Origin: Gemmatimonadota bacterium
GTDB taxonomy: Bacteria > Gemmatimonadota > Gemmatimonadetes > Palauibacterales > Palauibacteraceae
Length of the DNA: 64,000 nt
NCBI GenBank assembly: GCA_029262175.1
Contig: JAJCZV010000235.1
Location: 3,014 to 67,013 of the forward strand
Reading direction: 5' to 3'
The notes beneath the pieces are model-generated. The model did not search any database. It saw only the letters and a program-made list of their open reading frames with translations, and was not told the DNA's origin. This document shows, piece by piece, positions 12,200 to 59,833 of the stretch. Position 1 is the first letter of the stretch, and each line of letters starts with the position of its first letter. The position numbers and the translations under genes were made by a program.

Positions 12200-12643
12200 C
12201 TAGGGGAAGATCTCGCGCAGGGCGTTTCGTCTGTACGAGAAGATCTTCTCGAGTTCACGACGAACGAATAATCGGTCTACCAGACGCCCGCCCGGGACGG
12301 CGTAGTCGACGTGATCCTCGACACGGGTGCCCCCGTCGACCGGTGTGAAGGTGTGCGTGTGAACCCACCGTCGATACGGTCCCTTTAGCTGTTCATCGAC
12401 AAAGCGGACGGACGGTTCCCAAGCCGTGATCTCGCTGCGCCAACTCATCGGCAACCCCCGCATCCGAAGCCGATAGTCGATGCGCGTGCCGACCGCCATC
12501 ACGATGGGCGTCGGCGAGGTGATCCGAAGCCGGAGCCAGGGCGGAGTCAGCGTCTCCAGGTTCTCCGCGTCGGCAAAGAACGAGAAGACTTCATCGATCG
12601 GATAGGCCAATCGTTGCTCGGTTACGAACTGTGCGCCGTTCAT
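12200..12643 (-). CDS. SRPBCC family protein (polyketide cyclase/dehydrase-like)
   Basis: A ~147 aa protein with a START/Bet v1-like pattern (YPIDEVFSFFADAENLETLTPPWL...). Transcribed divergently from the ECF sigma gene. Confidence 0.6.
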   Translation of the reverse strand: MNGAQFVTEQRLAYPIDEVFSFFADAENLETLTPPWLRLRITSPTPIVMAVGTRIDYRLRMRGLPMSWRSEITAWEPSVRFVDEQLKGPYRRWVHTHTFTPVDGGTRVEDHVDYAVPGGRLVDRLFVRRELEKIFSYRRNALREIFP

Positions 12644-12782: not shown

Positions 12783-13367
12783 ATGCGAGATGAGAGCTTG
12801 GTCGTAAAGACCGAAGAGCGTCTTCTCGGAAGCGTCGCGCGCGGCGAACCGGGGGCAGTCAAGGCCTGCTTGGACCAATACGGGTCCTTGGTCTGGTCCT
12901 TGGCGTTGAGGAGGACCGCGTCTCGCGAGGAAGCTGAGGACGCCGTGCAAGAGATCTTCGTGGATATCTGGCGAAGTGCGGAGCGCTACGATCCGGCCAA
13001 GTCGTCCGAGGCCGGGTTCGTTGCGTTGATCGCGCGGCGACGTCTCATCGACCGCTCTCGCAAAGCCAGCCGTCGTCCGATCCTGACCCAGCTCCCCGAC
13101 GGCTTGCAAGCCGGTTCAGACGATCACGAAGCGCTCGAGCGCAGAGTCGAGGCGAGCCAGCTTCTGGAAATGGTCAATGAGTTGCCCGAGAAGCAGCGGG
13201 ACTTCATTCACCTGGCGATTGTCACCGGTCTTTCGCACACGCAGATCGCGGAGCGCACGGATACGCCCCTCGGCACGGTGAAGTCGAACATCAGACGTGG
13301 TCTGGCGGAGATCCGGCGACAGGTTACCGGGTCCGCCTCTCGAGACCAGACGGCGGGGGCATCGTGA
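12783..13367 (+). CDS. ECF (sigma-70 family) RNA polymerase sigma factor
   Basis: Region 2 (YGSLVWSLALRRTASREEAEDAVQEIFVDIW) and region 4 HTH (LPEKQRDFIHLAIVTGLSHTQIAERTDTPLGTVKSNIRRGL). Confidence 0.85.
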   Translation: MRDESLVVKTEERLLGSVARGEPGAVKACLDQYGSLVWSLALRRTASREEAEDAVQEIFVDIWRSAERYDPAKSSEAGFVALIARRRLIDRSRKASRRPILTQLPDGLQAGSDDHEALERRVEASQLLEMVNELPEKQRDFIHLAIVTGLSHTQIAERTDTPLGTVKSNIRRGLAEIRRQVTGSASRDQTAGAS

Positions 13368-14143
13368 ACGATCGACCGCTGCCGCAGCTCGAGGAGCTGC
13401 TGATCGATCGGGCAACCGGAGACCTCGATGCGGAGGGCGAGGCGCGATTCGCCGAGATGTTCGCGACGGAGCCGGGCGCCACTGATGACACCTACGAGCT
13501 GCTCGTCGCCGAGATGACTGCGGCGATGCTCGAACAGGATGGGCTCGAGTCCATGCCCGAATCTGTGGCCGCGGCGATCCTCGAAGGTGCCCAGGATCGC
13601 ACCGCGCCCGTCGATATTTCGCCCGCGACCCACCGCGCGCCACGGGCGTCTTGGCCCACGTGGTCGGGCTGGTTGCTCGCTGCAGCGGCGCTCATTGGCT
13701 GGTTGGTTTTACCCGGCCTGAGGACGCCCGCAGGCCCGCCGCCCGAACCCACGGTCGCGCAGATCAGAGACGCGCTCGTGAGTGGCGGCTCGGCGGTACA
13801 GCTCGCGTGGACCGCCACCGAGGATCCCGCCGCTGCCGGCGCTTCGGGAGAGGTGGTTTGGAGCACGGCAGAACAAGCCGGCGTCATGACGTTTTCCGGA
13901 CTCGAGGCGAATGATCCTTCGATCTCCCAGTACCAGTTATGGATCTTTGACGCGACACGCGACGATCGCTTTCCGGTCGATGGCGGTGTGTTCGATGTCG
14001 TGGCCGGTCAGGACGTATTGATCGAGATCCAGGCCAAGATCGGAGTGCGCGAACCCAGCCTGTTTGCCATCACCGTCGAGCAGCCCGGTGGGGTCGTGGT
14101 CTCGGATCGCGAGCGGATCGTCCTCGTGGCGCAGGCCGATTGA
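13364..14143 (+). CDS. Anti-sigma factor (RskA/anti-sigma-K-like, single-pass membrane)
   Basis: Its ATGA overlaps the sigma-factor stop. An N-terminal anti-sigma region and one TM helix (WSGWLLAAAALIGWLVLP) precede a periplasmic RskA-like C-terminal domain. Confidence 0.65.
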   Translation: MNDRPLPQLEELLIDRATGDLDAEGEARFAEMFATEPGATDDTYELLVAEMTAAMLEQDGLESMPESVAAAILEGAQDRTAPVDISPATHRAPRASWPTWSGWLLAAAALIGWLVLPGLRTPAGPPPEPTVAQIRDALVSGGSAVQLAWTATEDPAAAGASGEVVWSTAEQAGVMTFSGLEANDPSISQYQLWIFDATRDDRFPVDGGVFDVVAGQDVLIEIQAKIGVREPSLFAITVEQPGGVVVSDRERIVLVAQAD

Positions 14144-14544
14144 TGCTCCGATCGACGCTGCTCATGGTCGCGTTTGGGCTCTTCCCCGGAATCACCGACT
14201 CGCACCCCGCCGGGTCGACTGCACGGCCGGACCCGGAAGCATTGGTGGGGACGTGGGTGGTCGATCTTCGACCGACGCCCGACGCCGCGCCGTACCTCCA
14301 GGAGTTCGTCGTCACGTCGGTGGCGAACGGCCAACTCGAAGGAACGTTCTATGGGAGTTCGATCGAAGAAGGACGCATCAACACGGATTGGGGATTGGTC
14401 CGCTTTGCCTTCGTCACCACCGATGGGGCAGGCGTTTATCACACGTCCGGCAGGCTAGACGGGGGACGCCTCGAAGGACTCACGCATTCGCTCGGCCGCG
14501 ACTTCCTCAGTTATTGGACGGCCGAAGGGCCGGCCGCTCGGTAG
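14140..14544 (+). CDS. Small secreted protein of unknown function, co-transcribed with sigma/anti-sigma
   Basis: ATGA overlap with the anti-sigma stop. Signal peptide MMLRSTLLMVAFGLFPG. No recognisable domain. Confidence 0.45.
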   Translation: MMLRSTLLMVAFGLFPGITDSHPAGSTARPDPEALVGTWVVDLRPTPDAAPYLQEFVVTSVANGQLEGTFYGSSIEEGRINTDWGLVRFAFVTTDGAGVYHTSGRLDGGRLEGLTHSLGRDFLSYWTAEGPAAR

Positions 14545-14580
14545 GGTTCGCGAGACCTCCAAACCTCTACGATTGACCTC

Positions 14581-15093
14581 TTGACCTCACGAATCGAATC
14601 GCCGCCCCTTGGGCGGACGCTCATAGCTCTCGCCGTATGCTTGGTGGCCCCGCTCGCGGTTGGCGCGCTATCAGGGCTGGCCACTCAGGACGGCGTGCGG
14701 ACCTGGTATCAGCAAATCGTGAAGCCCGGGTTCACGCCTCCGGACTCCCTGTTCGGGCCGGTCTGGACCGCGCTCTATTTCGCCATGGGCTGTGCGGCGT
14801 TCCTGGTGTGGCGTGCCGGCAATGCTGGCGCCGACGCCCGCGGGGTCCGAGTGAGTCTCATTTGGTTCGTGATCCAATTGTTCGCGAACAGTCTGTGGTC
14901 CGTGATCTTCTTCGGGTTGCAGAACCCGGGGCTCGCGTTCGCCGAGATCCTAGTGCTGTTGGCCCTGATCGCGGTGACGACGAGAAGTTTCTGGGATCAC
15001 TCGCGCCTCGCCGCCGCGCTCATGGTGCCCTACCTGCTGTGGGTGAGCTTCGCGACCGCGCTGAATTTTTCCATTTGGCGTCTCAACGCGTGA
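14581..15093 (+). CDS. tspO: TspO/MBR family tryptophan-rich sensory protein
   Basis: Five TM helices with the conserved WYQQIVKPGFTPPDSLFGPVWTALY block and Trp-rich C-terminal helices. The start is TTG, or a nearby internal TTG/GTG. Confidence 0.8.
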   Translation: MTSRIESPPLGRTLIALAVCLVAPLAVGALSGLATQDGVRTWYQQIVKPGFTPPDSLFGPVWTALYFAMGCAAFLVWRAGNAGADARGVRVSLIWFVIQLFANSLWSVIFFGLQNPGLAFAEILVLLALIAVTTRSFWDHSRLAAALMVPYLLWVSFATALNFSIWRLNA

Positions 15094-15986
15094 GGCGTGA
15101 TCGGCCCTGGTTCGCTCGCCCAGCTCAGTTCGCTCGCTCGGGGACCCTAGCACTCTGCCTCGCGGCCTCAGGGTTTGTTCCCAGGGCCGGTTTCGCGCAG
15201 AGCCCCGAAGGGAGCGGCTGCCCTCCGAATCTCGAGGTACTCGTCGAAGCTCCGTTTGCGGCTTCGCGAGGGATCGAGCCAGGTCACGAGCTTCGCGTTC
15301 GTGCCAATCCCGACGGGGAAACGTGCCTGGCGCGCGTGGCCGGGCTTTTCACGCCGCCCGCCGATCCCTCCAAACTGGTCATCGAACGACCGCGCGTGCT
15401 CTTCCATCTCCCCCAACTGGCGACGCTGACGGGCAGAGCCGACGAAGTCGATCACTTCACGGTTCGGCTAACTCCGGGCCTGGACTTCCGAGCGATCGCG
15501 GAGCAGCTCGAGCCGCTGCTCCCTGGGACGCAGGTCTTGACCACGGCCGAGGTCGCCAATCAAAGTTCGACGACCTTCCTCGTGGTGAGCCGGTTTCATC
15601 GAGCGATCGGGATCATCACGCTGATCGCCGGAGGCGTCTTCCTCGCCTGCATCATGATTCTCAAAGTCCAGGAGCGGCGAGCCCCCATCGCGGCGGCTCG
15701 CTTGGTGGGAATCCCCCGAAGCATGCTGATGGGGTGGACGATCGCGGAGGCGGCCATGGTGTCCACGATCGGCGGGATCTTAGGGCTCGGACTCGGCATC
15801 GCCGCATCGCGGATCATCAACGTGTATTACCAACGCGTCTACGAAACCACGCTCGTATTCTCCCACGTGACGGTCGACATGATTCTGCAAGCGGTTGCGT
15901 TGGCGATCGTGTTGGGGATGGCTGCCGGCGTCTATGCGGCCCAGCGTCTGGTTTCCGCCGACGCTCTTCAAGAAGTGGGACGGTAG
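15090..15986 (+). CDS. FtsX-family ABC permease, short form lacking a canonical N-terminal TM1
   Basis: The C-terminal three-helix FtsX domain is clear (IITLIAGGVFLACIMIL...LVGIPRSMLMGW...AIVLGMAAGVYAAQ). The periplasmic part is only ~130 aa. The proposed GTG start overlaps the TspO stop (GTGA). The N-terminal hydrophobic stretch is short. Confidence 0.55.
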   Translation: MRRDRPWFARPAQFARSGTLALCLAASGFVPRAGFAQSPEGSGCPPNLEVLVEAPFAASRGIEPGHELRVRANPDGETCLARVAGLFTPPADPSKLVIERPRVLFHLPQLATLTGRADEVDHFTVRLTPGLDFRAIAEQLEPLLPGTQVLTTAEVANQSSTTFLVVSRFHRAIGIITLIAGGVFLACIMILKVQERRAPIAAARLVGIPRSMLMGWTIAEAAMVSTIGGILGLGLGIAASRIINVYYQRVYETTLVFSHVTVDMILQAVALAIVLGMAAGVYAAQRLVSADALQEVGR

Positions 15987-15989
15987 ACG

Positions 15990-17174
15990 GTGCTCGCCCG
16001 CTACTCGGTCCGCGAGCTCGTACACCGCCCGCTGCGAACGATCCTCGCCCTTCTCGGTGTGGCGGTCGCTACGGCGATGCTGGTCGACATGCTCATGCTG
16101 GCGGGCGGGATCCAGAGAAGCTTTGCCGAGTTACTCTCGGCCCGCGGCTATGAGCTTCGGATCTCCCCCAAGGGCACGTTGCCCTTCGACACGGAGGCCA
16201 CGATCCCGAACTTCGCCAGCCTGATGGACACCCTCGCGGCGACGAACGGCGTAGCAGGGGTCGGACCGGTGCTGGCGTCCGCGGTGATCCTGGCGCACGG
16301 TGACGGTGCGGCCCCCTCAGACCTTTCGGTGCGCGCGATCGCCCTCGGCATCGATCCAACCGAGCAGGGACTGTTTCGTTTGATCGACGGTGAGGATCCG
16401 GTCGAGAACGAAGTTCTTCTGGACCAACCGACCGCCGAAGCGTTCGGTGTCGCACTAGGCGACATGGTCGAGATGCGCGTCGCCGGCGGTCTCGACGTCG
16501 CGGGACGGTCTGCACAGATGCGGGTTTCGGGGATCGGCGAGTTTCTCTATGCCGCTCGCGGCGACGTCCCGATTGCGGTGCCCCTGGAGGAACTCCAGCT
16601 ACTCACGGGAAAGCTGGATCGGGTGTCGTTCGCGATGATACGTGTCGCGGAGGACGCCGAGGCGGAAGCGGTTCGAACCGAGCTAGCCGGCGCGGCGCGT
16701 GTCGAGGTCGTGACCTTGGCGGGCATCGTCGCGCAGGCCAATGAACGACTCTCGTACTTTCGTCAGCTGGCGCTCATCCTCGGGTCGGTAAGTCTCATCG
16801 TGACCTCGCTTCTGGTCGGCACGATCATGGCTGTGTCCGTCAGCGAACGGCTGGGGACCATCGCGGCGCTGCGGGCGATCGGAATTTCGCGTCGAAGCAT
16901 CGTCGGAAGCCTGACGGCGGAAAGCCTCATCCTTTGCGCACTCGCAGGCGCGGCCGGGCTCGGGCTCGGCGTGATCGTAGCCGAATACCTGGAGACGATC
17001 CTTTCCGACTTCCCGGGTCTCCCGCTCGCCGTCGAGTTCTTCGTTCTCCGACCCGAGAGTCTCGCGACCGCCTATGTGCTTCTCCTCGCGGTGGGGAGCG
17101 TCGCGGGCCTCGTTCCAGCTTGGCGGGCGACCCAGCTCGAGGTGGCCACGCTCCTCCACGCGGAGGAGCCATGA
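15990..17174 (+). CDS. FtsX-family ABC permease (MacB/LolCE-like, full architecture)
   Basis: TM1 (LRTILALLGVAVATAMLVDMLMLAGG), then a ~220 aa periplasmic domain, then three C-terminal TM helices. Confidence 0.75.
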   Translation: MLARYSVRELVHRPLRTILALLGVAVATAMLVDMLMLAGGIQRSFAELLSARGYELRISPKGTLPFDTEATIPNFASLMDTLAATNGVAGVGPVLASAVILAHGDGAAPSDLSVRAIALGIDPTEQGLFRLIDGEDPVENEVLLDQPTAEAFGVALGDMVEMRVAGGLDVAGRSAQMRVSGIGEFLYAARGDVPIAVPLEELQLLTGKLDRVSFAMIRVAEDAEAEAVRTELAGAARVEVVTLAGIVAQANERLSYFRQLALILGSVSLIVTSLLVGTIMAVSVSERLGTIAALRAIGISRRSIVGSLTAESLILCALAGAAGLGLGVIVAEYLETILSDFPGLPLAVEFFVLRPESLATAYVLLLAVGSVAGLVPAWRATQLEVATLLHAEEP

Positions 17175-17884
17175 CGGACACCGTCGGATCGGTGAACCTC
17201 GAGGCGGACAGCGACCGGACGATCGTTACGGCATCAGACGTCGTTCGCGAGTACCGCATGAGCGGCGTTCCCGTTCGCGCCCTCCGCGGCGTATCGCTCT
17301 CGGTCGCGGAGCGGGAGTTCATCGCGGTCATGGGGCCGAGCGGGTCCGGAAAGTCGACGCTGCTCCACCTGCTTGGCGGCGTGGACGTGGCGACATCTGG
17401 CAGGGTCGTTTTTCTCGGTCAGGACTTCGGGCGCATGTCCGTCGAAGCACGCGCACGACTTCGGCTTCGCAAAGTGGGACTCGTGTTTCAGCGTTTCCAT
17501 CTCCTGCCGATGTTGACCGCGCTCGAGAACGTCGAGCTCCCGATCGCAGCGCTCGGTGTCCGGCGAGCGGAGCGTCGCGACCGCGCCGCATCTTTGCTTG
17601 CGCGCGTGGGCTTGGACGACCGGCTGGGCCACCGGCCGGGAGAGCTTTCGGGAGGACAGCGACAGCGCGTCGCCATCGCACGCGCGCTGGCCAACGAGCC
17701 CGCCGTGCTGTTGGCGGACGAGCCGACCGGAGAGCTGGACCGCGCGACCTCTCACGGCGTGCTCGAGTTGTTCCAGCGGCTCAACAGCGAGGGCACCACC
17801 ATCGTCGTCGCCACCCACGACCCGGAACTGGCGGCGGGGGCAAGCCGACACGTTGAAGTCGTCGACGGCCGGATCGGATCATGA
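17171..17884 (+). CDS. ABC transporter ATP-binding protein (MacB/LolD family)
   Basis: Walker [10 protein letters not shown], signature LSGGQRQR, Walker [16 protein letters not shown] overlap with the permease stop. Confidence 0.85.
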
Positions 17885-19380
17885 TCTGGCGGCTCGTGCT
17901 GGCCTCGATTCGGCAGCGACCGGCGCGCAGCCTGCTCCTCCTCTTCGGCTATGCGCTCGGGGTCGGGGTGACGATCGCTCTGCTTTCAATCGGCGGCGCA
18001 CTCGTGACCCAGGCGCGCGATCAGACCTTGATCGGTGGCGGTGACCTCGTGGTGCTCCCGGCCGGTATCGATCTGGAGACGCTGAAGACCGGCGCCGTCA
18101 GCTCGATGTTCTTTTCGATCGAACCTGCCCCGTTCCTGTACCGCGAGGTTCTATCCGGTCCGCGGTTCGAAGATCGCGTGACGGCCGCCGCGCCCTGGAT
18201 CGACGACGAACTCCTATATCTCGAGATCGACGGCGATCTGATCCCGATCTCCGCGGGCGCGAACATCCCGAGCCTCGCGGCGGCGTTGGGCGTCGCACCT
18301 GACCTGGTCGCAGGGGACTGGAGGGACCTGCCGATCGATACTCGCTGGCGCGCCCCGACCGATGCCGAGCTCTACGCTTCCCTCGACAGGCTGCACGTTC
18401 CCGAGGGTGCGGCTGCCGGAGATTCGACCTGGGCCGAGTGGCACTATTTCAATGTGCTCCTGCCCGATGACGCCGGTTGGCTCTATCTGACCTACATGAT
18501 CGCGGGCGAAGTGCCGGACGGTCGATGGGGAGGTCGGCTTCTAGCTACGCTCGTCGAACCTGGAGTGGGGGAGCGTGCCTTCGTGTTCGAGGTCCCGGCC
18601 GACGAGGTCGTCTTCGTCGCTGGTCAGCCGGATCTTTCGATCGCCGGGTCCTCCGTCACGATTGGCTCCGACGGCGTGTACCATCTCGAGGCCCTGATTC
18701 CGAGCGAAGGAAGCGGCGACCCGCTCCGGGTGGACTTGTCGGTGGCGGCCGCTTCGCGCCGGTACTTGCCGCCGCTCGACATCGGCGGCGCGGCACTCAC
18801 ATCGGGGTACACCGTCCCAATGCTCGATGGCCGATCCACGGGCCAGATCTGCGTGGGCACGCGGTGCCGGAATCTGGAGGAGGCCGGCACGTACCACGAC
18901 CATAATTGGGGAACCTGGAGTGAGGTGACGTGGAACTGGGGGCAGGCGACGGTGGGCGAGTATTCCGTCTTGTACGGCGGGGTGGCCAAGTCCGGTCAAG
19001 CCGAGGGGGCCCACTTTCTGTACGTCGCCGACAGCGATGGGTTCGCGGGCGTGTACCCGATCCGCGCTATCCGAACCCAGTGGCGAGACGATCCCTTGAA
19101 AGCGAGCACACCGCATTCGATCTCGGTCATTGCCGGATCCGGGCGCGACTCGCTGGCGCTCGAGATCGATGTTCTTCACGCGCGGGCGACCGCGCTCCCG
19201 GCAGGGGCCGACACTTCGCCCGCGCTCTTCTATCAGATGCGCGGGCGTGCAACGCTGTCGGGGCGCCTGTCGGACACCCCAGCGAGTGGCATGGGATTGG
19301 GGTTCTTCGAGACGTGGGCGCAGGCACCCTCTTCGACGCGGGCTAGCGCCCCTCCGCCCGACCCTTCCCAGAGTCGCTGA
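17881..19380 (+). CDS. Membrane-anchored AttH/CrtC-like (hydroxyneurosporene-synthase-family lipocalin-like) protein with an FtsX-type TM1 N-terminus
   Basis: ATGA overlap with the ATPase stop. The first 45 aa (IRQRPARSLLLLFGYALGVGVTIALLSIGGA) look like a MacB/FtsX TM1. The ~450 aa soluble domain contains AEWHYFNVLL, resembling the (E)WWYF block of the CrtC/AttH family. Confidence 0.5.
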   Translation: MIWRLVLASIRQRPARSLLLLFGYALGVGVTIALLSIGGALVTQARDQTLIGGGDLVVLPAGIDLETLKTGAVSSMFFSIEPAPFLYREVLSGPRFEDRVTAAAPWIDDELLYLEIDGDLIPISAGANIPSLAAALGVAPDLVAGDWRDLPIDTRWRAPTDAELYASLDRLHVPEGAAAGDSTWAEWHYFNVLLPDDAGWLYLTYMIAGEVPDGRWGGRLLATLVEPGVGERAFVFEVPADEVVFVAGQPDLSIAGSSVTIGSDGVYHLEALIPSEGSGDPLRVDLSVAAASRRYLPPLDIGGAALTSGYTVPMLDGRSTGQICVGTRCRNLEEAGTYHDHNWGTWSEVTWNWGQATVGEYSVLYGGVAKSGQAEGAHFLYVADSDGFAGVYPIRAIRTQWRDDPLKASTPHSISVIAGSGRDSLALEIDVLHARATALPAGADTSPALFYQMRGRATLSGRLSDTPASGMGLGFFETWAQAPSSTRASAPPPDPSQSR

Positions 19381-19408
19381 CTCCGATCCACGCCTATTGA
19401 ACGCCGCT

Positions 19409-20389
19409 TCACTCGAGATGACGCTGCGTCGCCCGACCGAGTTCGGAGAGCAGGTCGCGCAGCTCGACGAGGTCATCCATATGTCGGAGCCCCGCTGCAT
19501 CCAGGGCGGAACGATAGCGCTGTGCTCCGGCCCCGCCGACGACGACGGGCACACTCGCGGGCAAACGCCCCCCGAGTCGCACCAGCTCCGCGGGCAGAGC
19601 CGGATCGTCAACGAGATGGACGATGCTCAACGCGACCAAGTCGACGGACGTCGCGCGCGCCGCGTCCGCGATATCATCGGCGGGTAGGTCGGCCCCCAAG
19701 AACGTGATGCGGCACCCCATCGCGGCTGCGGTCGTGGCGACCAATAGGGCACCGACGTCGTGATGCTGGCCCGCAGGCGTCGCGACCAGGACATGCGCGC
19801 CCCCGGACGGTTCGTCTTCCATCCTGCCGACGGCCTCCGTCAGCATGGCCCGCACGACCGCGGTCGCGGCGTGTTCTTGTGCGACAGTCAGTTGCCCGTC
19901 GGCCCAAGATTGCCCGACCTCGTTCATGAGCGGCACCACAACGCCCTCGATGAGTTCCCAGGGAGAGAGTAAGAGCATCGCGCGCCGTATCGTCGCTTTG
20001 AGGCGCGCGGTGTCCATCCCGATCACCGCTCGTCGCGACTCGGTGAGGTGGGTCTCGCAAGGGCCCCTCGATGCCGTGAGGCCGGACCCATGCTTGGGCG
20101 ATTGCGCTTCGTCCTCGCGGGTAAGCGACGCCAGCGCATCCGAGGAAAGCGCGGCCACCTGCCCGATCGTCCGTCCGGCGTCTGTAACCTGCTTGAGGAG
20201 CCGCAGCCTCTCGACGTCGGTGTCCGAATACAGGCGCCGGCCGCTCTCCGTCCGCGCCGGCTCCACGACCCGATAGCGTCGCTCCCAGGCTCGGAGCACG
20301 TCCTTGGAGAGCCCAGACCGCCGCGATGCGATCTGGATAGGGTGCCGTTTAGTCCCGTCGACCAGCGTGTTTGGCGTAGTTGAATCCAT
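19409..20389 (-). CDS. MerR-family regulator with C-terminal cobalamin (B12)-binding domain (CarH/LitR-like)
   Basis: N-terminal MerR HTH (IQIASRRSGLSKDVLRAWERRY...LYSDTDVERLRLL). The C-terminal Rossmann-like B12-binding domain has GQHHDVGALLVA (DxHxxG-type His ligand context). GGAGAC RBS. Confidence 0.75.
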   Translation of the reverse strand: MDSTTPNTLVDGTKRHPIQIASRRSGLSKDVLRAWERRYRVVEPARTESGRRLYSDTDVERLRLLKQVTDAGRTIGQVAALSSDALASLTREDEAQSPKHGSGLTASRGPCETHLTESRRAVIGMDTARLKATIRRAMLLLSPWELIEGVVVPLMNEVGQSWADGQLTVAQEHAATAVVRAMLTEAVGRMEDEPSGGAHVLVATPAGQHHDVGALLVATTAAAMGCRITFLGADLPADDIADAARATSVDLVALSIVHLVDDPALPAELVRLGGRLPASVPVVVGGAGAQRYRSALDAAGLRHMDDLVELRDLLSELGRATQRHLE

Positions 20390-20582: not shown

Positions 20583-21098
20583 ATGAAGGTCTCAAAGCTC
20601 TTCGCACTCGCTTTGGCAGCCGGCGTCGCGGTATCGAGCCCGGTAGCCGCGCAGCACACGACAATGGCGGCGCAGCACCCGACCATGGATATCGTCGACA
20701 CGGCCGTATCCGCCGGCTCGTTTGAAACGCTCGTCGCCGCGTTGACGGCCGCCGGTCTGGTCGAGACGCTCAAGGGTGACGGTCCGTTCACCGTGTTCGC
20801 ACCCACGGACGAAGCGTTTGCGGCGCTCCCCGAGGGAACCGTTGCCAACCTGCTCAAGCCGGAGAACATCGATCAATTGGTCGCGGTGCTGACGTACCAC
20901 GTGGTTCCGGGTAAGGTTCTCAGCGCCGACGTGGTGGGCCTGTCGTCCGCGAAGACCGTTCAGGGCGAGAGCATCTCGATCGCCGTCAAGGACGGCAAGG
21001 TCATGATCGACGAGGCGCAGGTGGTCACCGCCGACATCGAGACGACCAACGGAGTCATCCACGTGATCAACCAGGTCATCCTTCCCGGGCAGAACTAA
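20583..21098 (+). CDS. Secreted fasciclin (FAS1) domain protein
   Basis: Signal peptide, then FAS1 motifs ([13 protein letters not shown]...[11 protein letters not shown]...TTNGVIHVI). Strong RBS AAGGGGA. Confidence 0.8.
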
Positions 21099-21189: not shown

Positions 21190-21410
21190 AAGCGGCGACC
21201 CGCTCCGGGTCGACTTTTCGGTGGCGGCCGCCTCGCGCCGGTACTTGCCGCCGCTCGACATCGGCGGCGCGGCTCGATGGCCGATCCACCGGCCAGAACC
21301 CGTGCGAGTGGCATGGGATTGGGGTTCTTCGAGACGTGGGCGCAGGCACCCTCTTCGACGCAGGCTAGCGCCCCTCCGCCCGACCCTTCCCGGAATCGGT
21401 GACGCGGATC
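21190..21410 (+). repeat. Decayed partial duplicate of the 3' end of the AttH-like gene (segments of 18722-19373, collapsed)
   Basis: Three near-identical blocks: 21190-21285 matches 18712-18790; 21286-21305 matches 18820-18845; 21306-21391 matches 19276-19370. The copy has internal deletions, is not in one frame, and has no start, so it is a gene remnant. Confidence 0.7.
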
Positions 21411-21610
21411 AACACCTTCTGGATATGGATCGAAGAACGCTTGATCAAGCAGGTATTGGGTCTCGAATTCAAAACCGGAGCGATACTCGCGAACCACTTC
21501 CGCGAACGGACGCTTTGCGGTTCGCCACGATCGGGCCGAGGAGTCTGAAGTGCTTCTCGCTGTTTGGAGGGGTTGTCCATCACGGACGTGGATGATACCC
21601 TAAGGTTTCA

Positions 21611-27933: not shown

Positions 27934-30564
27934 CTAGTCCGCGCGAAGCGCGCGCATCGGATCGATTTTTGTCGCTCTGTGCGCCGGCACGTAACAGGCG
28001 ATGCCTGCGATCAGGACCAGACCCGCGACGGCGACCGCTAGCGCGAGAGGGTCCGTCGCCGAGACGTCGAACAGCAAGCTTTCGAGCCACTGCGTTCCAA
28101 GCAGCGCGAGCGTGAGGCCGATCGCGATACCGATCCCAACGCGGGCCATCCCGCCGAGGACAACCGACCGACGAACCGCGGCCGGATGAGCACCGAGGGC
28201 GATTCGAATCGCGATCTCGCGACTCTGACGGCTAACGGTGTAGGACAGCACGCCGTACACGCCGATGGCGGCGAGGACGAGTCCGAGCCCGGCGAACAAA
28301 CTGAACAGGGTGGTCCAGTAGCGCGGCCCCGCCACCTCTGCGGATAACCGCGCGTCCATGGTCTCGACGTTGGAGAGGGGCAGCGCCGGATCGAGTTCCT
28401 GAAACACGGCACGCAAGCGGCCGACGATGCCGGCCACGGGTCCCTCGCTTCGAACCAGTAGACTCACGCTTCGAAACCCGGCCTGCGCGAACGGTTCGTG
28501 TACGGCGACGTCCCCGGCCGTATCGAGACCTTCGAACTTCACGTTCGCCAAGACCCCCACGACAGTCATCGGGTTGTCTCGGTCACCGCCCGAGTAGAGC
28601 TGCTTGCCCAACACGTCGCCGTCCGGGTAGTAGCGACTTGCCCAGGCCTCGCTGACCATGACGACGGGGAGTGAATCCCGCCCGTCCCGCTCTTCGAACA
28701 TCCGTCCTCGCTGGAGCGGCACCCCGAGCGCGCCCCAAAACCCAGGACTGGCCCAGCTCCACGGCACGGATGGTTCGCTCGACCCCTCGGGAACCGGCTT
28801 ATCCACCAGATCGAAGTTGTTTGTCTCGCCTTGCAGATTCGGGGGCAACCCGGTGCCGATGCCCGCGGCGCGCACGCCGGGGATCTCACGGACGCGTCGC
28901 AGCGCCTCATCCCAGAACGCGACGACTTCGCTGTACCCTTCGTACTCGGCGGGAGGCAGAGAAACATCGGCCGAAACGAGATTCGTCGGATCGTAACCGG
29001 GATCTACGTTCTGGAGACGAACAAAGCTTGATACGAGCAGCGCCGCCCCGGCCAAGAGCGGGAGGGCGATGGCGAACTCGGCCGCGACCAGTGCCGAGCG
29101 CAGTCGACGCCCCCGCGACCCGGATGCGTCAGCTCGATCTCCGCCGCGAAGATTCTGCATGAGACTCGGGGCGGTCTGCAGCAAAGGCGCCAAACCGAAC
29201 AACACGCCCGAGCCTAGCGTGACCGCCGCCGCGAACGCGAGTACTCCGCCGTCCAGCGAGATCTCGTCGAGCCTCGGAAGGTTGGGGCTCGTGCCCACGA
29301 AGGTCTCCAAACAAAGAAACGCCAGCGCGACGCCGACCGCTCCTCCGATCGCGGCCAGCAACAGACTCTCCGTGAGAAGCAGCCGCACCAGCCGCCTCTT
29401 TGTCCCGCCGAGCGAAGTTCGCAGCGCCATCTCGTGCTCTCTGCCACTGGCGCGAACCATCAACAAGTTCGCGACGTTCGCGGTCGCGATCAGGAGGACC
29501 CCGAGGACGGCACCGAACAGCAGCCACACTCCGGTACCGACGCCCCCGAGAATGGTCTCGCGCAGCGAGTACGGCGTGATCAACGCCTTTTCATCGCGAA
29601 ATCCTTCGGCCCAGATCGGGTAGATGCGGCGAGTGATGTCTGCCAGATCGGCCTCTGCTCCCGCCACCGAGACGCCGCCCGAGAGCCGACCAAACCCGCG
29701 GAGGAAGAACGGGCCGCGACGCGTGGGCGGCTCGAGCTGGAGGATCGGCCAAACGTCCGCCCGCAGCCCGGCGAGCGACGCTCGGTCTCGACCAAGGACG
29801 CCCACCACGGTGTGGGGGACGCCGTCGAGGGTCAGCACTTCATCGATCCCGCGGGCGCCCTCCCCGAACATCCGGTCGCGAAGGCCCGCGCTGATCACGA
29901 CGACCGGCGACGACCCGGGCTGGTCCTCGTCCGTTGCGAAGCCACGCCCCTCGAGCGGGTGGACCCCGAGAACCCGAAACCAATCGGCGGTGACTCGGCC
30001 CGCGACGAACCGTTCGGGGCGGCCCCGCCCGGTGAGCGTCACGCGAGCGGCTTGCAGGGCCGCGACATGCTCGAAAGAGCGTTGTTGTTCCTTCACCGCT
30101 TGAAAGTCGACAACGGAGAGACTCCACCGATTGGTCGGAGCGTTCTGCTCGAACATTCGCACCAAACGATCGGGCTCTGGATAGGGAAGATCGTCGAGCA
30201 AGACGGCGTCGACGATGCTGTAGATCGCCGTAGTCGCACCAATCGCAAGGCCCAGTGTGAGGACCGCGGCGACCGTGAACGTCGGGCTCCGGCGCAACCC
30301 GCGAGCCGCATATTTCAGATCCCGGAGTGTATCCTCGACCCACCGGAGCCTCCACTCCTCGCGGGCCTGCTCGCGAACGGTTGAAGCCCGTCCAAACGCC
30401 TTCTGTGCGATTCGCTTGGCTTCAGCGGGGTCGGCTCCCGCGCCGATCAGGCGATCCGTCTCTCGCCCGAGGTGATAGGCGATTTCCTCGTCGAGCTCGC
30501 GCTCGGCGCGCGGGCGATTCAAGAGTTCGGAGAACCGGCTCTTTAGACGCGCAAACCAGGACAT
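27934..30564 (-). CDS. ADOP-family duplicated FtsX permease (MacB-like, 876 aa) with N-terminal permease-prefix domain
   Basis: Two FtsX repeats and an N-terminal cytoplasmic prefix (MSWFARLKSRFSELLNRPRAERELDEEIAYHL). It lies immediately downstream of a PadR gene, the classic ADOP arrangement. Confidence 0.75.
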   Translation of the reverse strand: MSWFARLKSRFSELLNRPRAERELDEEIAYHLGRETDRLIGAGADPAEAKRIAQKAFGRASTVREQAREEWRLRWVEDTLRDLKYAARGLRRSPTFTVAAVLTLGLAIGATTAIYSIVDAVLLDDLPYPEPDRLVRMFEQNAPTNRWSLSVVDFQAVKEQQRSFEHVAALQAARVTLTGRGRPERFVAGRVTADWFRVLGVHPLEGRGFATDEDQPGSSPVVVISAGLRDRMFGEGARGIDEVLTLDGVPHTVVGVLGRDRASLAGLRADVWPILQLEPPTRRGPFFLRGFGRLSGGVSVAGAEADLADITRRIYPIWAEGFRDEKALITPYSLRETILGGVGTGVWLLFGAVLGVLLIATANVANLLMVRASGREHEMALRTSLGGTKRRLVRLLLTESLLLAAIGGAVGVALAFLCLETFVGTSPNLPRLDEISLDGGVLAFAAAVTLGSGVLFGLAPLLQTAPSLMQNLRGGDRADASGSRGRRLRSALVAAEFAIALPLLAGAALLVSSFVRLQNVDPGYDPTNLVSADVSLPPAEYEGYSEVVAFWDEALRRVREIPGVRAAGIGTGLPPNLQGETNNFDLVDKPVPEGSSEPSVPWSWASPGFWGALGVPLQRGRMFEERDGRDSLPVVMVSEAWASRYYPDGDVLGKQLYSGGDRDNPMTVVGVLANVKFEGLDTAGDVAVHEPFAQAGFRSVSLLVRSEGPVAGIVGRLRAVFQELDPALPLSNVETMDARLSAEVAGPRYWTTLFSLFAGLGLVLAAIGVYGVLSYTVSRQSREIAIRIALGAHPAAVRRSVVLGGMARVGIGIAIGLTLALLGTQWLESLLFDVSATDPLALAVAVAGLVLIAGIACYVPAHRATKIDPMRALRAD

Positions 30565-59027: not shown

Positions 59028-59833
59028 GCGGCACCCCGCCAGCCACCGCAGGAACGCAAGGCGCACTCGTCTGCGAAGCGGTCTCTCACAAGTACGACAA
59101 AGACGACGGAGAACTCGCAGCGCTCGCGGACGTGGATCTTCAAGTGCAGCCTGGGGAATTCGTCAGCATCGTCGGTCCAAGCGGCTGTGGTAAGACGACG
59201 CTCCTAAAGATCATCGCGGGCCTCATGACGCCTTCGTCGGGCAACGTGAGCTTCCCGGGTCATGCCCAAGATGATCCGCCGCGCAACGGACTGGTGTTTC
59301 AGGAGCACGGCGTCTTCCCCTGGATGACGGTCTTGGACAACGTCGCCTTCGGTCTGGAGATGCGTCAGGTTCCGCGGGTCGAGCGTCAGCAGCGGGCCGC
59401 CGAGTTTATCGAGCGGGTCGGGCTCCAGGAGTTTGGGAGCAGTTATCCGCATCAACTCTCCGTGGGCATGCGTCAGCGCGTGGGAATCGCGCGCGCTTTC
59501 GTGGCAGACGTTCCGATCCTGCTCATGGACGAGCCTTTCGGATCGCTCGACGCGCAGACCAAGATCGTGCTCCAAGAAGAGCTCCTCCGTCTCTGGAGCC
59601 ACGATCGCAAACTCGTCGTGTATGTCACACACGACATCGAGGAGGCCGTGCGACTCGGCGACCGGGTGCTCGTCATGAGTGGCCGGCCCGGACGCATCCG
59701 AGAGGACATCACCGTTCCGTTCGAAAGACCGCGACAGCTGGGGCGCGGCGACCCCGCCGTGTCCGAGCTGGTGTGGCATATCTGGGATCTCCTGCGCGAC
59801 GACGTCCGCAGCGGTCTTTCCTTGCGAGACTGA
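59024..59833 (+). CDS. ABC transporter ATP-binding protein, NitT/TauT (SsuB/TauB-like) family
   Basis: Walker A GPSGCGKTT, signature QLSVGMRQR, Walker B LLMDEPFGSLD. Confidence 0.85.
   Translation: MSGTPPATAGTQGALVCEAVSHKYDKDDGELAALADVDLQVQPGEFVSIVGPSGCGKTTLLKIIAGLMTPSSGNVSFPGHAQDDPPRNGLVFQEHGVFPWMTVLDNVAFGLEMRQVPRVERQQRAAEFIERVGLQEFGSSYPHQLSVGMRQRVGIARAFVADVPILLMDEPFGSLDAQTKIVLQEELLRLWSHDRKLVVYVTHDIEEAVRLGDRVLVMSGRPGRIREDITVPFERPRQLGRGDPAVSELVWHIWDLLRDDVRSGLSLRD

Follow-up and report, generated by a model that had tools for sequence, protein, structure and literature searches.

A conserved Gemmatimonadota transporter cassette in which one type VII permease half appears to be divided between two genes, the front piece being joined to an AttH-fold barrel

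Proteins of the AttH type have been known since the 1990s as neighbours of LolD/FtsX transporters, and no defined function has yet been assigned to them. The subject of this report is a four-gene ATP-binding cassette (ABC) transporter cassette in which a domain of AttH/CrtC fold appears to be joined to the front part of a permease, and which lies on the forward (+) strand of a 64,000-nucleotide stretch of a Gemmatimonadota bacterium (contig JAJCZV010000235.1, assembly GCA_029262175.1), the whole of which is referred to as the window. The nearest known system is AttEFGH of Agrobacterium tumefaciens together with Rv0986-Rv0988 of Mycobacterium tuberculosis, in which a LolD-like ATPase, FtsX-type units and an AttH-fold protein likewise occur together (PMC3982062, PMC2954199); the allotment of permease units to genes is already variable in this group, AttF and AttG of Agrobacterium being encoded apart and Rv0987 combining the two in one protein (PMC3982062). 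Those systems have complete permease units and an AttH-type protein that is a separate product (PMC3982062), whereas in the window one unit is cut inside its periplasmic domain, its front piece is fused to the barrel, its back piece carries a predicted signal peptide, the gene order is different, and the barrel is without a Pfam CrtC or Lipocalin_9 match.

The fold of these permeases is defined by MacB (of MacAB-TolC), which consists of transmembrane (TM) helix 1, the first Porter half, Sabre, the second Porter half and TM2-4 (PMC5985334), and the MacB_PCD and FtsX domains are both matched here; in contrast to MacB, the cassette has no fused nucleotide-binding domain (NBD), MacA-type adaptor or outer-membrane duct (TolC-type) gene. 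LolCDE resembles the cassette in having two different four-helix permeases with two LolD ATPases and no fused NBD, and is both the best structural match of permease 1 and the best family match of the ATPase; it extracts an outer-leaflet lipidic substrate, which it hands over to an acceptor of beta-barrel type that docks on the periplasmic domain. All NCBIfam Lol models, however, fall far below their cut-offs here (lolCE on permease 2, 40.9 bits against 362; LolD on the ATPase, 237 bits against 307.75), the domain resembling the acceptor is joined covalently, and one of the permeases is divided; no LolA-like gene or adaptor was found within the four-gene cassette. The published catalogue of MacB-family layouts comprises fused, homodimeric and heterodimeric forms and does not include a split of 1 + 3 helices (PMC5985334), and full-text literature searches returned no description of this arrangement. 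The cassette is an undescribed architectural variant, conserved across the phylum, of a known transporter class, and not a new kind of system.

With a probability of roughly two in three, the cassette encodes an ABC system of type VII (MacB/LolCDE-type), of whose two permease halves one is assembled from two polypeptides. A sequence-only reading of the window had already remarked that permease 1 lacks an FtsX TM1 and that gene 4 starts with one, and this observation was confirmed; the coordinates of both genes stand at 15090-15986 and 17881-19380 (298 aa and 499 aa, respectively). They belong to a + strand run of five head-to-tail genes, namely tspO, permease 1, permease 2, the ABC ATPase and gene 4. 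The features of the cassette, in which structures modelled using AlphaFold2 (AF2) are given with their predicted local distance difference test (pLDDT) scores where relevant, are as follows.

15090..15986, + strand: permease 1 (gene 1), 298 aa; GTG start within the tspO stop (GTGA)
15090..15197, + strand: permease 1 leader, aa 1-36; basic n-region, 13-residue h-region, GFA/Q site (the slash marks the putative cut, here and below); AF2 pLDDT <50
15198..15569, + strand: permease 1 periplasmic part, aa 37-160; predicted rest of Sabre and second Porter beta-alpha-beta (hhalign, weak Pfam match)
15570..15986, + strand: permease 1 FtsX domain and stop codon; three TM helices equivalent to TM2-TM4
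15990..17174, + strand: permease 2 (gene 2); intact four-TM MacB/LolC-type permease; Pfam MacB_PCD aa 17-233, FtsX aa 263-384
17171..17884, + strand: LolD/MacB-type ABC ATPase; Pfam ABC_tran E 4.4e-34; ATGA overlap on both sides
17881..19380, + strand: gene 4, 499 aa; ATGA overlap with the ATPase gene
17881..18024, + strand: gene 4 aa 1-48; basic elbow helix and MacB-type TM1/stalk helix; AF2 helices 2-12 and 14-48
18025..18273, + strand: gene 4 aa 49-131; predicted first Porter beta-alpha-beta and first Sabre hairpin, an incomplete domain (hhalign, Pfam)
18274..18405, + strand: gene 4 aa 132-175; helical linker with conserved Trp, Asp and His
18406..19335, + strand: gene 4 aa 176-485; AttH/CrtC-fold double beta-barrel, about 310 aa, all-beta (AF2, Foldseek)

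Permease 2, the presumed partner half of the split unit, showed four TM-like hydropathy segments and a Pfam FtsX match (PF02687) at E 2.4e-14. The ATPase shows Walker A, signature and Walker B motifs, and its best NCBIfam matches were LolD (E 1.7e-70), MacB, YbbA and FtsE (E 1e-60 to 1e-70), all of them well short of the equivalog cut-offs, as was LolC/E, the model nearest to permease 2; gene 4 had no NCBIfam match.

Profiles of the three membrane proteins, made from alignments of related loci, were compared using hhalign. Gene 4 aa 1-131 was collinear with permease 2 aa 1-124 (E 1.3e-5, probability 81%), and permease 1 aa 44-291 aligned on permease 2 aa 136-384 (E 1.3e-25, probability 99.7%), the same register being returned by BLAST (permease 1 aa 45-232 on permease 2 approximately aa 137-323). 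As a control for transmembrane composition, the N-terminal part of gene 4 was aligned with permease 1 and gave no hhalign match (E 0.3); helix composition alone is therefore not the source of the other matches. On the Pfam MacB_PCD profile the gene 4 N-fragment occupied positions 1-78 (E 8.7e-4), and the permease 1 periplasmic part occupied positions 127-206 (a weak match, E 0.16). The pieces do not overlap and would therefore make one permease between them. From these alignments gene 4 is predicted to hold TM1 and approximately 90 periplasmic residues, comprising the first Porter half and the first Sabre hairpin, and permease 1 the remainder; a four-helix, Porter-containing unit on one polypeptide is true of permease 2 and not of the permease 1/gene 4 unit. 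Two proposals of the sequence-only reading, that one permease half is spread over two genes and that gene 4 opens with a homologue of the front part of a MacB/FtsX permease, are supported by the hhalign and Pfam results.

Hydropathy analysis of gene 4 showed one strong TM segment (aa 17-42) following four arginines, and, as had been proposed, neither hydropathy nor AF2 placed further membrane helices after it. AF2 models this hydrophobic run of 22-26 residues as part of a 35-residue helix (14-48), in which L20, L21, G23, G27, V28, V30, T31, L34, L35, S36 and A40 are invariant. The consensus frequency across 54 orthologues was 0.74 for gene 4 TM1, 0.76 for permease 2 TM1 and 0.59 for the gene 4 barrel, and the elbow/TM1 region (aa 1-48) is the most conserved segment of gene 4. 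Signal peptides lack such conservation and helix length, and this long, invariant-rich N-terminus is predicted to be a stable TM helix; the possibility that it is a signal peptide was not supported. A weak MacB_PCD match was obtained by Pfam for full-length gene 4 (aa 17-115 on profile positions 1-82), and an N-terminal MacB_PCD match was present in 55 of 68 gene 4 homologues (best E 2.2e-5). A profile search of solved structures with gene 4 gave LolE matches that were insignificant (E approximately 2) and position-consistent (aa 80-153). The AF2 model of gene 4, made from a 68-sequence alignment, had a mean pLDDT of 79.6 and values of just 30-50 at residues 44-130, which rank among the most conserved of the family despite their low pLDDT alone. 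A stub that is conserved yet has no confident fold alone is as expected of an incomplete domain needing a partner.

The same low AF2 confidence at aa 44-130 favours the best surviving alternative, which we regard as unlikely, that the gene 4 N-module is a relic membrane anchor, with permease 1 working as a three-helix protein with permease 2 and the AttH-like protein simply tethered nearby. It would also accommodate a gene order unlike that of simple fission, and gains from the fact that contact between gene 4 and permease 1 is deduced. A plain anchor, however, would not be expected to surpass the rest of the protein in conservation, to keep many helix positions invariant and to be followed by a conserved periplasmic stub, and the stub is exactly the piece that permease 1 is without, with no overlap. 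Porter is moreover regarded as intrinsic to type VII mechanotransmission (PMC5985334), and permease 1 alone has only half of it.

In permease 1, Pfam identified the FtsX C-terminal domain only (PF02687, aa 172-289, E 8.8e-13), and the three TM-like segments seen by hydropathy all lie inside this domain, with no FtsX TM1. The N-terminus, MRRDRPWFARPAQFARSGTLALCLAASGFVPRAGFA/Q, has a basic start, a 13-residue hydrophobic core and a small-x-small site, and its 19-residue hydropathy maximum is 1.26, compared with 2.24-2.34 for TM1 of genes 4 and 2. Judged by hydropathy and motif heuristics, this leader looks like a cleavable Sec signal peptide and not a TM1. The proposal that permease 1 is without an N-terminal TM1 is thus upheld by the hydropathy value, and needs the amendment that an N-terminal hydrophobic segment, signal-peptide-like in character, does exist. 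An upstream in-frame start that might supply a TM1 was looked for and none was found, the upstream in-frame extension being an arginine-rich, out-of-frame reading of tspO in which a hydrophobic segment is absent. The AF2 model of permease 1 (62 sequences) consists of a disordered, low-confidence leader, a small, confident beta-rich domain from residue 44, and long TM helices at 161-195, 210-251 and 262-289; the best PDB matches by Foldseek were LolE/LolC, YtrF, FtsX, HrtB and MacB. The periplasmic part holds invariant or conserved cysteines, C44 and C79.

Among orthologues the leader of permease 1 varies between genomes, both in sequence and in length, throughout the two clades of the family described below, and many leaders have only 12-16 residues. 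They typically end in AxA/Q, AxA/E or AxA/D a few residues ahead of the conserved domain, as in ...GAGPAWA/QVSE... and MILRRIVIALAAVVTAAATLHA/ADD..., and their median 19-residue hydropathy is 1.69, compared with 2.43 for gene 4 TM1. A leader retained as a non-homologous replacement for TM1, so that permease 1 would have four helices and gene 4 would add a ninth, is quite unlikely. The leader is long enough to stay as an anchor in 17 of 61 cases (19-residue hydropathy >=1.9), and the judgement of cleavage is a heuristic one; set against this are the variability and shortness of the leaders, the position of their cleavage-like sites just ahead of the conserved domain and the low score of the leader in the window itself, and permease 1 would still be without the first Porter half.

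The periplasmic domain of MacB runs in the order first Porter beta-alpha-beta, contiguous Sabre, second Porter beta-alpha-beta (PMC5985334), and the break is placed approximately one third of the way into Sabre because the two pieces are collinear with this order. The suggestion that TM1 alone had moved was not borne out by hhalign, which put the break approximately 90 residues into the periplasmic domain. Reading TM1 as the only permease element in gene 4, with the break directly after it and the rest a purely AttH-like accessory, would suit the fact that TM1 is the most obvious MacB-like feature of the protein; it is made very improbable by permease homology extending to about gene 4 residue 131, by permease 1 matching from the equivalent of permease 2 residue 136, and by the weak, position-consistent LolE match at aa 80-153. 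The term "transplanted", used for the helix in the sequence-only reading, presupposes an evolutionary direction; the search for an unsplit relative, from which such a direction could be read, found none among the 150 top matches of the gene 4 N-fragment.

The remainder of gene 4 was modelled as a barrel with pLDDT mostly >90 (aa ~184-481). Its top Foldseek match was the "putative AttH" NE1406 (PDB 2ICH; E 5.6e-12, TM-score 0.62 on the target), and further matches were to kievitone hydratase, the fungal decalin-forming cyclases Fsa2, Phm7 and CghA, and 25-phosphosteroid lyase, all at E 5.6e-12 to 4e-9, probability 1.0 and 11-14% identity. Like NE1406, CrtC, kievitone hydratase and the fungal Diels-Alderase group, it has two orthogonally packed lipocalin-like barrels. 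No match to Pfam CrtC (PF07143) or Lipocalin_9 (PF17186) was obtained for the protein in the window at E<=10 or for 68 homologues at E<=0.01, the only Pfam matches of the barrel and its homologues being weak ones to Tocopherol_cycl and AsqO_C. The label AttH/CrtC, given to gene 4 from its sequence, is accordingly valid for the fold and fails for the sequence family; the barrel also differs from the 2ICH/CrtC group in its low identity and in being preceded by a permease fragment and not a signal peptide. EWxY-type and D-x-x-WG-type motifs, which we take to be signatures of the AttH/CrtC superfamily, are present within the barrel motifs WAEWHYFN, YHDHNWG and GFFETW, and Asp340, inside YHDHNWG, is invariant; Cys324 and Cys329 form a conserved pair. 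The invariance of YHDHNWG, WAEWHYFN and GFFETW suggests a defined site, possibly a catalytic one. Five gene 4 homologues (P0095, P0102, P0103, P0114 and P0116; approximately 760-772 aa) carry a C-terminal domain of the class A beta-lactamase family (aa 513-739 in P0114). A periplasmic location of the barrel fits the positive-inside charges, the cysteine pairs (C324/C329 in gene 4, C44/C79 in permease 1) and these beta-lactamase fusions.

Homologues of gene 4 number more than 500, and the 120 best were examined; all of these are >50% identical, most are 480-500 aa long, and those that are named are entered as "hypothetical protein" of Gemmatimonadota. The locus scan, which used one genome per species, gave at least 340 loci, and the best 80 comprised 79 titled Gemmatimonadota and one titled just "bacterium"; the gene 4 family is present in Gemmatimonadaceae and in Gemmatimonas metagenome-assembled genomes. 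The order short permease 1, permease 2, ATPase, gene 4 was intact in 61 of the 63 loci with sufficient upstream DNA. In loci L012 and L069 the permease genes were not cleanly recovered, and L012 was rejected as a case of permease 1 loss, a run of masked bases lying exactly at that place. All 120 permease 1 homologues listed are 249-338 aa long and have the FtsX domain only. The genes around the cassette vary between loci, and tspO was found beside it in none of 83 related loci; the cassette is therefore self-contained.

A second clade, in which the gene 4 N-termini are 34-38% identical, is plentiful in metagenomes from soil, where the four genes recur and the permease unit is divided in the same way. 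Its operon was read from a metagenome scan (approximately 25 loci), which together with approximately 60 genome loci gave approximately 85 pairs overall, and the expectation that orthologous operons would show the same split was thus borne out in genomes and metagenomes alike. On one second-clade metagenome contig (L113, 2241-4382) one reading frame of 713 aa spans both permease 1 and permease 2, which is either a YbbP/Rv0987-like fusion or a sequencing frameshift; its permease 1 part still has a signal-peptide start and is without TM1. With gene 4 aa 1-175 as the query, phmmer matched only 242 of 1.84 billion representatives, and among the top 150, which were inspected, no unsplit relative was found, all being of gene-4-type architecture, fragments or ATPase read-through fusions. 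The ATPase and gene 4 are in one chain in P0237, P0191 and P0245, which are probably mis-called at the ATGA overlap and not true fusions, the translation of P0237 being visibly frameshifted. A 1667-aa protein with 18 short matches (P0223) is a repeat-rich type IX secretion system (T9SS) protein and was treated as spurious. The idea of an artefact (a wrong start codon, frameshift, pseudogene, or an ordinary cleavable signal peptide at the gene 4 N-terminus), for which the probable metagenome-assembled origin of the window and a decayed gene 4 fragment 2 kb downstream could be cited, is scarcely credible in the face of the same architecture in hundreds of independent assemblies from two clades, intact reading frames with overlapping stop and start codons, and a gene 4 helix of 24-35 residues rich in invariant positions.

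Several points weigh against a permease half made of two polypeptides. The match of the gene 4 N-terminal part to permeases is significant and modest (probability 81%, with Pfam mostly below the gathering score), and neither the gene 4 N-fragment search nor the permease 1 homologues yielded an unsplit relative that would show the ancestral state. The gene for the C-terminal piece comes first and that for the N-terminal piece last, an order that simple fission would not leave. It is from complementarity and conservation that we infer the packing of gene 4 TM1 with permease 1, and from hydropathy and motif heuristics that the permease 1 signal peptide is predicted to be cleaved, the 17 long leaders counting the other way. 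The substrate, proposed to be a membrane lipid or isoprenoid, is suggested with lower confidence, and the tspO and regulator surroundings in the window are not conserved with the cassette.

In the arrangement that would follow from a two-polypeptide permease half, gene 4 would insert with its N-terminus inside and its remainder in the periplasm, and the Sec signal peptide would export the N-terminus of permease 1. Gene 4 would supply the elbow helix, TM1 (stalk helix 1), the first Porter beta-alpha-beta and the first Sabre hairpin, the barrel continuing from the break, and gene 1 would supply the rest of Sabre, the second Porter beta-alpha-beta, the stalk helix TM2, TM3 and TM4. The two chains would jointly form the stalk (TM1 and TM2), the Porter sheet and Sabre, equivalent to a normal four-helix unit, and this reconstituted unit would pair with permease 2 and two LolD-like ATPases to give eight TM helices, as in LolCDE. 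All members of type VII are considered to have a Porter subdomain, which is seen as central to mechanotransmission (PMC5985334). With Porter strands contributed by both polypeptides, the barrel would therefore be anchored at the moving tip of the mechanotransmission apparatus, and the fusion of the front piece probably wires the AttH-like periplasmic domain into an ATP-driven machine.

What this machine may act upon can be suggested from its relatives. Members of the AttH/CrtC fold act on prenyl, carotenoid, steroid or polyketide substrates by means of an acidic residue (PMC6013536), and NE1406, which is linked to a transporter of LolD-like type, has a proposed role in the metabolism of lipids or isoprenoids (PMC2954199). 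The closest mechanistic precedent is YbbAP-TesA of Escherichia coli, in which a type VII transporter serves a periplasmic lipid enzyme, YbbAP extracting hydrophobic molecules for TesA (PMC12646458); LolCDE handing lipoproteins to LolA is another. YbbP is, however, a fused double permease, and TesA is a separate SGNH hydrolase that docks non-covalently, whereas here the AttH-fold partner lies within a permease fragment. By analogy, ATP-driven movements might extract a hydrophobic molecule, probably an isoprenoid or other lipid, from the outer leaflet of the inner membrane and feed it into the tethered barrel for binding or chemical conversion. This scheme of ATP-driven extraction and delivery is offered tentatively, the odds being somewhat against it.

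Upstream of the cassette, at 12783-15093 on the + strand, stop and start codons overlap through genes for an extracytoplasmic function (ECF) sigma factor, an RskA-type anti-sigma factor, a 134-aa protein without a family match, and tspO, which adjoins permease 1.

14581..15093, + strand: tspO; Pfam TspO_MBR E 3.7e-50; stop overlaps the permease 1 start; local context, outside the conserved cassette

Convergent and downstream is a MerR and B12-binding (CarH/LitR-like) regulator (19409-20389, - strand). These surroundings are light- or oxidative-stress-flavoured and particular to this genome, not conserved with the cassette, and tspO, the ECF sigma/anti-sigma pair and the B12-binding MerR regulator were rejected as clues to function, the flanks being variable and no related locus having an adjoining tspO. 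The flanking region also holds an SRPBCC/polyketide-cyclase-type lipid-binding protein (12200-12643, - strand) and a secreted fasciclin-domain protein (20583-21098, + strand). Between the fasciclin gene and the following gene lies a decayed 228-nt copy of gene 4 (21190-21417), which consists of three joined pieces matching 18711-18794, 18822-18847 and 19276-19395 at 92-96% identity and retains the stop codon plus 15 nt past it; it looks like the remains of a second gene 4 copy that has undergone internal deletions, or is possibly an assembly artefact. Elsewhere in the window are a match to an FtsX-type permease fragment (27937-28320, - strand) and an ABC ATPase 40% identical to that of the cassette (59120-59692, + strand), and the genome therefore holds other type VII-like systems.

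A conserved natural split would show that the type VII permease fold is able to assemble from fragments, and would mark the Sabre subdomain as a permissive site for the attachment of a large functional domain. The covalent attachment of the AttH-fold domain to the transporter implies direct transfer between them, and offers a testable route to AttH function. In its fullest form, which is possible and at present doubtful, the cassette would be a two-piece type VII permease with an AttH-fold enzyme or lipid-binding domain in its mechanotransmission apparatus, in which ATP hydrolysis directly loads or actuates an isoprenoid- or lipid-processing barrel; it would then represent a phylum-wide core envelope-lipid pathway in Gemmatimonadota and a first mechanistic handle on AttH-type proteins. 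For annotation, hundreds of entries now called "hypothetical protein" (gene 4) or "FtsX-like permease" (gene 1) would be the halves of one subunit.

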